Part shown: positions 7,183 to 63,615 of the stretch, in pieces
Layout of the letters: each line of letters begins with the position of its first letter
How positions within the stretch are numbered: position 1 is the stretch's first letter
Origin: Flaccisagitta enflata
Taxonomy: Eukaryota
Assembly: GCA_965153355.1 (NCBI GenBank)
Contig: OZ231126.1
Span: 4,030,001-4,094,000, forward strand
DNA: 64,000 bases
Reading direction: 5' to 3'
Made by a program: the position numbers and the translations under genes
Notes under the pieces: generated by a model
Databases searched by the model: none
The model's input: the letters and a program-made list of their open reading frames with translations, nothing else
Told to the model about the DNA's origin: nothing

Positions 7183-7311
7183 CTCCTCGAAGAAGAGCTG
7201 AGTTTTCCTGAGAATGTGTTTGAGTTCGGTGAGTTCGAGGAAGTTCTTTTTCAGGGCCTCCGCGTTTGTATTCACTTCCTTCATCTCATTCTCCAACTTT
7301 TCAAATGTCGC
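7183..7311 (-). CDS. ATP6V0A1: V-ATPase V0 subunit a, coding exon 4
   Basis: [43 protein letters not shown], 129 nt, flanked by CAG and GTTAGT. Confidence 0.95.
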
Positions 7312-8200
7312 CTGAAAGCAAGAAACAAGTCAAGTCAGAAGACGATAATCATTCATCACATTCACACATTCACTTGCTTCATCTCATTCTCCAACTTTTC
7401 AAAAGTCGCCTGAAAGCAAGAAACAGAAAGAAAGTCAGAAGACGATAATCATTCATCGCATTCATTCATTTATTCACTTCCCTCATCTCATTCTCCAACT
7501 TTTCAAATGTCGCCTGAAGCAAGAAACAGAAGTCAAGTCAGAAGACAATAATCATTCATCACATTCACACATTCACTTCCTTCATCTCATTCTCCGACTT
7601 TTCAAATGTCGCCTGAAAGCAAGAAACAGAAGTAAAGTCAGAAGACAATAATCATTCATCTCATTCATTCACTTCCCTCATCTCATTCTCCAACTTTTCA
7701 AATGTCGCCTGAAAGCAAGAAACAGAAGTAAAGTCAGAAGACCATAATCATTCATCACATTCACTTCCTTCATTCTCCTACTTTTCAAATATCGCCTGAA
7801 AGCAAGAAACAGAAGTCAGAAGACGATAATCATTCATCAAATTCATTCATTCACTTCCTTCATCTCATTCTCCAACTTTTCAAATGTCACCTGAAAGCAA
7901 GAAATAGAAGTTAAGTCAGAAGATGATAATCATTCATCACATTCATTCATTCACCTCCCTCATCTCATTCTCCAACTTTTCAAATGTCGTCTGAAAGCAA
8001 GAAACACAAGTCAGAAGACGATAATCATTCATCAAATTCATTCATTCACTTCCTTCATCTCATTCTCCAACTTTTCAAATGTCGCCTGAAAGCAAGAAAC
8101 ACAAGTCAGAAGATGATAATCATTCATCACATTCATTCATTCACTTCCCACATCTCATTCTCCAACTTTTCAAATGTCGCCTGAAAGCAAGAAACAGAAG
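7271..8200 (-). repeat. ~100-bp tandem array spanning the acceptor of V-ATPase exon 4 (10 acceptor copies)
   Basis: Unit = intron end plus the first ~40 nt of the exon ([14 protein letters not shown]). Confidence 0.95.
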
Positions 8201-8672
8201 CAGGGGTGTACAAATTTGAGCGACTTTTGATTTCATCCCCCCCTGGTCTTTGATTTCCTTCCCGGCCCATTCGAAAAACTTTGATTTTCTACCCCATGGA
8301 GTGTAAATATAGTAAAAATATTGACAGGGGCCTACTCTGGAATTCACTACATCAGCCTTAAACCAATAGGTAAAAGCTACCGTAACATAGAAATCAATGG
8401 CTTCAGGGGATTCATTTAAAAAATTCCCCAAACAAAACTTACGTGGCCCGATTTGCCCCCCCCCCCTGGCCTACATTTGTTAACAAGTCAACAACCAGGC
8501 TTACCTCCAAACCGATTATTTCTTTTGGTTGAGGCTATAATTCATAAATAGTCTATATTCGTTAACAACATGTCAACAACCAAACTCACCTCCGAATCGA
8601 TCATTTCTTTTGGTTGAGGCTATATAATTCATAGTCTATATTCGTTAACAACCTGTCAACAACCAAACTAAC

Positions 8673-8770
8673 CTCCAAATCGATCATTTCTCTTGGTTGG
8701 GGCGCGTCTGGATTTTCACCCGTGTCCAACATTGGAATGTCATCCTTACGAATCTCCTTTTCCAAAAATC
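8673..8770 (-). CDS. ATP6V0A1: V-ATPase V0 subunit a, coding exon 3
   Basis: (R)FLEKEIRKDDIPMLDTGENPDAPQPREMIDLE; phase-1 start matches the end of exon 2. Confidence 0.95.
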
Positions 8771-61496: not shown

Positions 61497-62649
61497 AATT
61501 CTGGGCTTTGTGTCATACATTGGAGAACATAGGGTGGTGTGACATACATCGGAGAATTCTAGGCTGTGTGACATACATTGGAGAAAACTGGGTGATGTGA
61601 CAAAAACATCAGAGAATTCTGTACTATGCGACATACATTGGAGAAAACTGGGTCGTGTGACATACATCGGAAAATTCTGGGCTGTGTGACATACATTGGA
61701 GAAAACTGGCTGGTGTGACATACATTGGAAAATTCTAGGCTGTGTGACATACATTGGAGAAAATAGGGTGGTGTGACATACATCGGAGAATTCTAGGCTG
61801 TGTGACATACATTGGAGAAAACTGGCTGACGTGACATACATTGGAGAATTCTGAGTTGTGTGACATACATTGGAGAAAACTGGGTGGTGTGACATATATC
61901 GGAGAAAACTGGGTGGTGTGACATACATCGGAGAATTCTGGGTTGTGTGACATACATTGGAAAAAACTGCGTTGTGTGACATACATCGGAGAATTCTGGG
62001 TGGTGTGACATACATTGGAGAAAACTGGGTGGTGTGACATACATCGGAAAATTCTGGGCTGTGTGACATACATTGGAGAAAACTGGCTGGTGTGACATAC
62101 ATTGGAAAATTCTGGGCTGTGTGACATACATTGGAGAAAATAGGGTGGTGTGACATACATCGGAGAATTCTAGGCTGTGTGACATACATTGGAGAAAACT
62201 GGCTGGTGTGACATACATCGGAGAATTCTGAGTTGTGTGACATACATTGGAGAAAACTGGGTGGTGTGACATATATCGGAGAAAACTGGGTGGTGTGACA
62301 TACATCGGAGAATTCTGGGTTGTGTGACATACATTGGAGAAAACTGCGTTGAGTGACATACATCGGAGAATTCTGGGTGGTGTGACATACATCGGAGAAA
62401 ACTGGGTAGTGTGACATACATCGGAGAATTCTGGGTTGTGTGACATACATTGGAGAATTCTGGGCTGTGTGACATACATCGGAGAATTCTGGGTTGTGTG
62501 ACATACATTGGAGAAAACTGGGTGGTGTGACATACATCGGAAAAAACTGGATGGTGTGACATCGGAAAAAACTGGATGGTGTGACATACATTGGAGAATT
62601 CTGGGTTGTGTGACATACACTGGAGAAAACTGGGTCGCGTGACATACAT
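61493..62649. repeat. 29-bp tandem array, right part
   Basis: Same units and orientation as 55371-56158; resumes in register after the DIRS-like element. Confidence 0.95.
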
Positions 62650-63484
62650 TTTTACATAGGAAAAATCTGGGACGGACGGACGTACACACGGAAAATTTCT
62701 TAATATTTAGTGTTCCACTATCGTGGAACACAATGAGTGAATCAATCCGTGGAAAAAGAAAAAGAAATCTTCATGAGTGATTGCACAGTAAACATAATTC
62801 TATCGCCTTTAGAAAAAGGTTCATTCGATATGTTTGTAACTCTGTCTTTATCTTTATCTTAGTCTTTATCGCGAGGTTTTATCATCACGGAGTTAAATTT
62901 CACGACTTATACTAATTTGTGTCAATTTAACTTTTAAGTTATGGATTGTTTACAAGGACGTTGTTAGTGTCCGTCTGGATCGAGTCATCGTCAACGTAGC
63001 TTTTCGACGGAAACGGCGAGTCTGTTAATACTATAGCCTATAACGCCCTTAAATCAAGGCCCAAGTCATTTCCCATACCGTTCCTATATGATCTGGCGTA
63101 GTAAACATCTTAAGCTTTCCAGTCAGTCCACTTTCCTGACACTCCACCTGACACTTGCCCCTTGCTTCCCAAATCCACTCAACTGCCGTTGTTCCAGTTA
63201 TGGGTTGTGATGGAATATTTAGCGGGCGACAGCTTGACTTTGTCTTTCAGTTTCACTTGTTCATTTATTCTCTCATTCATTCTCTAATTCATTTATTCAT
63301 TCATTCATCTAGTCATTCATTCCCTGTTTCTTCCCGTTTTCAGTTAAAGGTTGTGATGGAGTATTTGGCGGGCGATAGCTTTGTCTTTCAGTTTCACTTG
63401 TTCATTTATTCTCTCATTCATTCTCCAATTCATTTATTCATTCATTCATCTAGTCATTCATTCCCTGTTTCTTCCCGTTTTCAG

Positions 63485-63615
63485 TTATGGGTTGTGATGG
63501 AATATTTGGCGGGCGGTAGTCTCACTGACGTTGTTACGGAGACTGTCATGGATGAAGGCCAAATAGCCGCAGTCTCCAGAGAGTGTCTGCAAGCACTCGA
63601 ATTCCTACATTCCAG
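63485..63615 (+). CDS. Pak: PAK coding exon 10 (gene continues beyond the window)
   Basis: [43 protein letters not shown](R), GTGAG donor. Confidence 0.97.

Follow-up and report, generated by a model that had tools for sequence, protein, structure and literature searches.

Minisatellite arrays that span exon-intron boundaries are dense in two housekeeping genes of Flaccisagitta enflata, where 16 of 64 splice sites have at least one further copy of themselves on the intron side. The structure is of a kind already described under the name of mirages; what is new here is the density of mirages and a measurable regional excess at junctions. We consider these arrays to be most likely a tolerated by-product of regional tandem duplication that persists by anchoring at exon ends. 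The window, a stretch of 64,000 nucleotides, covers positions 4030001-4094000 of contig C1, ~4 Mb from the start of this 112.6 Mb contig in an assembly of 794 Mb and 9 contigs. The minus strand of the window carries the 5' portion of a gene for V-ATPase subunit a, and exons 1-10 of a gene for a PAK kinase lie on the plus strand.

Junction-spanning arrays in the V-ATPase and PAK genes

When only the innermost sites are joined, V-ATPase subunit a (4 coding exons in the window, 20 in all) gives an open frame of 838 amino acids without a stop, and PAK (10 exons in the window, 14 in all) an open frame of 687 amino acids. The PAK exons in the window are open, with AG/GT at every site. The V-ATPase protein shows 84-94% identity to four other proteins and 62-71% to those of named animals; its exon 4 piece (43 amino acids) matches Pfam V_ATPase_I with an E value of 1.2e-6, a match that falls short of the family cut-off. 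The PAK gene (38795..63615, plus strand in the window) has Pfam matches to PBD and Pkinase and is 82% identical to the full-length protein P0003. The related full-length proteins are joined at the innermost sites.

The preliminary description of this DNA reported six arrays whose unit straddles a real splice site, and all six are recovered by TRF with matching coordinates and copy counts (Table 1). Their units measure 61-146 bp in the window, first units across both genes 44-141 bp, and the exon-derived part per unit is 23-63 nt in the 15 arrays tabulated from both genes. By reading of the TRF tables, eight arrays in the window have a primitive unit of 60-200 bp, and six of these coincide with splice junctions; the remaining two consist of a 166-bp repeat that recurs elsewhere in the region and a 101-bp unit made of 27-mers. 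It had also been stated that most extra copies keep GT/AG, which holds for 66 of 68 across both whole genes, and that the innermost copy completes the protein, which is true but is forced by the geometry of a junction-spanning duplication and so is not independent evidence.

Table 1. Gene models, arrays and splice sites in the window (window positions)
Feature	Position	Strand	Remarks
Inverted second copy of V-ATPase exons 1-2	1..3522	+	end of duplicated segment with second PAK copy
V-ATPase coding exon 4	7183..7311	-	real acceptor, exon start at 7311
V-ATPase exon 4 acceptor array	7270..8200	-	10 copies, units 87-104 bp, TRF period 95
V-ATPase exon 4 extra exon starts	7409, 7513, 7612, 7708, 7795, 7890, 7990, 8085, 8180	-	AG kept in all
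V-ATPase exon 3 donor array	8482..8703	-	3 copies; real 8673, extra 8590, 8505; units 83-85 bp; TRF period 83
V-ATPase coding exon 3	8673..8770	-	gene model
V-ATPase coding exon 2	9307-9385	-	array-free
V-ATPase coding exon 1	10921-11046	-	array-free
PAK exons 1-5	38795-39049, 39479-39551, 40563-40717, 41411-41675, 42511-42606	+	ORF with AG/GT
PAK exon 3 donor array	40667..41031	+	real 40717; extra 40778, 40839, 40900; 61-bp unit; TRF 40667-40946
PAK exon 3 donor, two decayed copies	near 40912-40949 and 40975-41031	+	
PAK exons 6-10	42897-43061, 50337-50579, 52070-52167, 54392-54481, 63485-63615	+	ORF with AG/GT
PAK exon 6 donor array	43011..43545	+	real 43061; extra 43182, 43303, 43428; units 121-125 bp; TRF 43011-43476, period 121
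PAK exon 6 donor, one decayed copy	from ~43497	+	
PAK exon 8 acceptor array	51623..52095	+	6 copies; real 52070; extra 51991, 51904, 51808, 51721, 51630; units 79-96 bp; TRF 51623-52084, period 87-91
PAK exon 10 acceptor array	63186..63519	+	3 copies; real 63485; extra 63344 (in frame, stop-free), 63198; units 141-146 bp; TRF period 141

Both genes were examined over their whole length with a 25-nt probe at each junction, giving 64 splice sites after one of 65 was dropped as low-complexity. An intron-side copy was found at 15 of these sites (8 acceptor and 7 donor arrays), and a gapped test added a sixteenth, a piece of exon sequence ahead of V-ATPase exon 14 that lacks an AG of its own, bringing the acceptors to 9 of 16 affected junctions. 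In the V-ATPase gene 11 of 39 junctions have such a copy, and the open frame is kept despite ten arrays with extra sites. The largest array, at the acceptor of V-ATPase exon 19, extends over 1.8 kb with 18 copies by chain count and 20 by TRF. None of the 64 probes had an exon-side copy within 500 nt and the units hold one exon end only, on which grounds tandem whole-exon duplication was rejected.

The amplification is not confined to splice sites. At the end of the PAK coding sequence the last codons and the stop are repeated five more times in the 3' UTR (C1:4101900-4102800) in both PAK copies of the assembly (see below). Since there is no splice site there, this array points to coding ends rather than to splicing. 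The V-ATPase stop codon and both start codons had no such copies, so that one of two stop codons has an array.

No extra site is more than 1.8 kb from its exon, and the introns concerned measure 475-9003 nt; once the arrays are collapsed, the introns beside them can be as short as 324-466 nt. A requirement for long introns was rejected, because collapsed lengths do not differ between 11 introns with and 21 without arrays (p 0.55). In 11 of 15 arrays the outermost copy and the real site have at most 18 nt of intron in common (range 2-18), whereas the first unit in those arrays contains 10-106 nt of non-exon sequence; in a few, there is little intron in the unit. Having so little intron in common is not explained by a single clean duplication. 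In others, V-ATPase exon 8 and PAK exon 10 among them, outer and inner acceptors have no sequence relationship; judged by eye, both acceptors of V-ATPase exon 8 seem complete, each having a pyrimidine tract and a branch-point-like motif. Two histories would account for this: a functional acceptor re-formed within the unit, or divergence of the outer flank alongside homogenisation of the exon part.

Several further features of the locus were recorded. V-ATPase intron 4 harbours a myosin gene in antisense orientation (C1:3956500-3962867, plus strand), and an open exon-like frame at window 4398-4568 (in 4398-4765), with no Pfam match, may be part of the tail of this myosin. Just upstream of the myosin head hits, at C1:3956686-3957200, a 73-bp donor array follows a plus-strand exon-like frame; some of its units contain AG, ~35 nt of exon sequence and GT, which are potential micro-exons between very short introns. 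Window 14740-14850 (plus strand, mirrored at 340-460) has an exon-like sequence with a donor, head to head with the V-ATPase 5' exon, and is a possible divergent transcript. Minisatellites with units of 14, 16, 24/25, 27 and 29 bp are densely packed in the intergenic region 17783-36400; a 27-mer among them is partly palindromic and sits in a larger repeated block (33293-36400). In PAK intron 9, 29-bp satellite blocks at 55371-56157 and 61492-62650 flank ~5.3 kb of unassigned sequence. A second, divergent V-ATPase subunit a gene is present at C7:40630027-40637020 (27-50% identity in pieces).

Junction excess and its regional gradient

The size of any junction excess depends on the control. When every intron base of the two genes with a nearby copy was counted and nothing was collapsed, the control stood at 12-21%, close to the 23% at junctions, and there was no enrichment. 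We set this base-level control aside as length-biased because it is inflated by expanded arrays and short-unit satellites. With each array reduced to its first unit the introns of both genes gave ~6-8%, and the excess is then about threefold. Sites outside the window, unseen when the preliminary description was made, were positive in 10 of 38 cases against a collapsed control of 6.7-8.2% (p 2e-4 to 8e-4).

Other genes were sampled through 274 of 275 kinesin, myosin, CCT, aldehyde dehydrogenase and kinase family hits, drawn from 468 reported. Their 350 exon ends, of which 343 were testable, are predicted boundaries, called by a matrix trained on V-ATPase a and PAK. The sample outside the locus amounts to ~0.6 Mb, leaving aside the planned myosin and some CCT regions, and its kinase hits are mostly long exons with few junctions; the whole sample is ~0.8 Mb. 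In the distal bin, which takes in sites up to 15 Mb from a contig end, a copy accompanied 7 of 79 junctions against 3.5% in the control (p 0.02) or 2.6% in a unique-DNA control (p 0.004), p-values which here and elsewhere assume independent sites, yet sites share genes and some genes occur twice. Interior sites showed no excess in this sample (2 of 264 against 1.4%), and the pooled figure, 9 of 343 against 2.0%, was not significant (p 0.24). Distal and interior sites differ from each other both at junctions (7/79 against 2/264, Fisher p 7e-4) and in the intronic controls (3.5% against 1.4%, p 3e-7). As a separate observation, (GAT)n or (GATT)n microsatellites lie between the junction copies of kinesin and myosin genes at C4:85379957, C8:56042079 and C3:9117012, and the kinesin acceptor among them is without a pyrimidine tract.

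A fair reading of these data is that the junction excess is about threefold (2.5-3.5-fold) and belongs to distal, repeat-rich regions, not to the whole genome. A comparison of junctions with a control, of the kind proposed earlier as a check, yields an excess in the distal sample and none in the interior one. Two origins had been put forward. A mutational process focused on splice junctions agrees with a moderate excess over the collapsed control, while the PAK stop-codon array argues against a cause specific to splicing. A genome-wide duplication process with tolerated junction-spanning products fits best, except that it proves regional rather than genome-wide, with no excess in the interior sample. 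The presence of the gradient in junctions and intronic controls alike supports a general process of duplication.

Copy-number turnover and drift of the extra copies

V-ATPase intron 4 contains, beyond the left edge of the window, a second PAK copy in two pieces that point in opposite directions and are separated by a 10-N gap. This copy has its full set of 14 intact exons, differs from the first at 47 of 2058 coding bases and at 6 of 686 residues, and could be either a young paralog or an allele that was left uncollapsed. The duplicated segment around it (C1 ~3970000-4033500, ~60 kb in V-ATPase intron 4) includes PAK, V-ATPase exons 1-2 and flanks at ~83-99% identity and in mixed orientation, its gap being at 4013572. 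This segment may itself be an uncollapsed haplotype, in which case V-ATPase intron 4 would measure closer to 20 kb than to 83 kb. Among the kinesin, myosin and kinase hits, several likewise come as near-identical pairs, with 50-250 kb between the members. The satellite-flanked block of PAK intron 9 is absent from the second PAK copy, the alignment jumping from ~55040 to ~62730.

Every array compared is present in both PAK copies, and the number of units is unequal in all six arrays at PAK coding ends. Window and second copy have, respectively, 6 and 3 units at the exon 3 donor, 5 and 2 at the exon 6 donor, 6 and 3 at the exon 8 acceptor, and 3 and 2 at the exon 10 acceptor. The older, outer units are common to both and the fresh inner units differ. 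By reading of the alignment of ~27 kb, tandem indels with units of at least 40 bp fall at six coding ends and in two intron interiors. In 10 of 16 arrays across both genes the real site is matched more closely by the innermost extra copy than by the outermost, and in 4 less closely; the trend from inside to outside is weak, and in the two longest acceptor arrays it is flat. Somatic instability has reportedly been noted for the lancelet Adh3 mirage.

The extra copies drift in a near-neutral manner, with no clear sign that decoys are kept or destroyed. Variants private to extra copies are synonymous in 29 of 88 cases (59 non-synonymous) against 27.7% expected (p 0.16). The only biased class is that of variants common to most copies, where 9 of 16 are synonymous (p 0.015), a pattern consistent with changes in the real exon. 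A threefold third-position mismatch excess per copy at first suggested that the extra copies are under purifying selection; this was rejected since the excess shrinks when distinct variants are counted. The exon-derived core that had been singled out as conserved is present in the extra copies, with no clear sign of selection in the variant counts. In raw counts, GT/AG identity is 133 of 136 against 767 of 814 for adjacent exon bases, by a probe that itself covers the junction.

As splice sites, 56 of the 68 extra copies are canonical and within 1 bit of the real site or better, by a matrix trained on these genes, and only 3 are canonical, in frame and stop-free, leaving 65 unusable in frame. 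Strict exon definition had been suggested as the reason why they are tolerated. In terms of exon size this does not hold: the nearest extra site, if used, would give exons of 177-286 nt, an ordinary size, and with flanked introns down to 324 nt, size limits would not explain silence, for which a proximity rule would be needed. Recursive splicing had also been raised. Its ratchet points have an acceptor directly followed by a strong regenerated donor and lie deep in very long introns. Here we found nine extra acceptors with AG directly followed by GT, whose donor scores are -0.5 to 6.0 compared with a real-donor median of 9.2, and the sites lie close to the exon (see above); recursive splicing finds no support in these features. 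RNA over window positions 7000-11300, from four runs (one raw-read and three contig), gave one raw read, and the contig runs covered almost only intronic repeats and essentially no exons.

Origin of the arrays and comparison with known systems

This genome has many local tandem duplications of ~45-150 bp, and their frequency rises towards contig ends. Where such a duplication falls within coding sequence it would be purged, but one that straddles an exon end would leave the exon whole and push the spare copies into the intron or the 3' UTR. Once a seed copy is present, slippage or unequal exchange with the real exon end could add units, and copy number would turn over quickly as fresh units arise beside the exon end, steps to which the differences between the two PAK copies lend some support. 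The exon end itself can be neither deleted nor left to drift and may therefore keep re-seeding its array, while duplicates in intron interiors would decay or vanish. We propose that such anchored persistence yields the roughly threefold junction excess without any targeting. By analogy with human F7 and the lancelet mirages, the spliceosome would take the exon-nearest site (cross-exon definition, or the first donor met), and the same analogy suggests that the extra sites are mostly silent, with rare slips cleared by NMD. Against this explanation count the short collapsed introns beside arrays (324-466 nt), where cross-intron pairing might be expected, the weakness of the inner-to-outer gradient, the small amount of intron common to outermost copies and real sites, and the restriction of the stop-codon array to one of the two genes.

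A process that targets exon ends, with breaks, stalled forks or template switches gathered at exon-intron borders by way of chromatin, R-loops or recombination, is unlikely in our estimation. It would account for the excesses outside the window and in the distal bin, and scrambled local filler, seen by eye in some units, suggests template switching; on the other hand, interior and pooled samples show no excess, the base-level control comes near the junction figure (inflated though that control is), and the arrays compared between the PAK copies are all present in both. No polarised new array, at a bare junction or at an intron site, separates this process from anchored persistence, which we hold to be probable. 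It is doubtful, too, that duplications are born preferentially at coding-exon ends in the stronger sense that about a quarter of distal junctions bear equally strong decoy ladders, acceptors included, and that new functional acceptors, complete with branch point and pyrimidine tract, arise inside the unit and replace the ancestral ones. Were birth targeted, the genome would be a natural, genome-scale test of exon-proximal site choice by an invertebrate spliceosome. The source of the intron part of the PAK exon 10 unit was also sought, and the genome search was uninformative, with (TTCA)n-like matches on eight contigs.

We regard it as improbable that the extra sites are regulatory, serving NMD-coupled unproductive splicing, alternative in-frame ends or recursive removal. 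The strength of most of these sites, the ordinary exon size given by the nearest one and the three that are in frame without a stop would suit such a role, against which stand the neutral variant pattern, the fast change in copy number, the few and weak donors behind extra acceptors, and the available accounts of lancelet mirages and F7 pseudo-sites, which describe them as unused (PMC3087553, PMC3902484, PMC1557585). Hardly to be entertained is that the arrays are repeats expanded by the assembler. The 10-N gap and the rearranged duplicate around the window invite that suspicion, but the junction probes of the copies are 68% to 100% identical to the real site and have private variants, and the second PAK copy has the same arrays with fewer units. 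Moreover, in P0125, an independent ORF from a metagenome, the intron sequence immediately preceding V-ATPase exon 4 is that of the inner unit, which, taken with the divergence among copies, speaks against an artefact. A further metagenome ORF, P0126, in which the outermost intron flank is joined straight to the full exon 4, looked like an array-free allele but was not used to polarise the array, because a short-read assembler could collapse the array likewise.

By simple arithmetic, a gene with ten decoy ladders must leak at less than ~7% per array to keep half of its output. Such arrays also mislead gene prediction and read mapping. Our literature search returned mirage reports on single genes, and no count against a control was found among them.

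Human long-unit VNTRs are enriched towards chromosome ends (PMC7608644), and the arrays described here resemble them as long-unit tandem repeats concentrated towards ends; the subject of that report, as it presents itself, is not splice junctions. Mirages proper are described from lancelet Adh3, the globins BflGb6 and BflGb9, troponin C and PGBD5 as units of 10-160 bp that span 5' or 3' exon-intron boundaries, most copies keeping GT/AG, with copy numbers that differ between haplotypes and array edges excluded from homogenisation; the portions of these reports that deal with the arrays mention no effect on splicing (PMC3087553, PMC3902484). The arrays of the present genome agree with them in junction-spanning units that include exon sequence, in minisatellite size, in affecting both donors and acceptors, and in mostly keeping GT/AG. 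They differ in belonging to another animal lineage (V-ATPase a is 68-69% identical to that of Branchiostoma, no closer than to those of nemerteans or a chiton), in a much higher density (11 of 39 junctions in one gene) with up to 18 copies by chain count, and in the positional gradient measured and the stop-codon analogue found here; silence of the extra sites would be common to both only by analogy.

The closest experimental parallel is the VNTR of human F7 intron 7, a 37-bp unit with 5-9 sequence-identical donors of which only the most upstream is used (PMC1557585). As in F7, the first unit here spans the boundary and is followed by near-identical donors, the exon-nearest site being the real one. 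F7, in contrast, is a single locus that concerns donors only, and its account of silence and of the rule of selection comes from experiment (PMC1557585). Here many loci are involved and more than half of the affected junctions are acceptors, which fall outside the scope of the F7 experiments, and this organism is useful for testing exon definition at acceptors, a point that the F7 work does not address.
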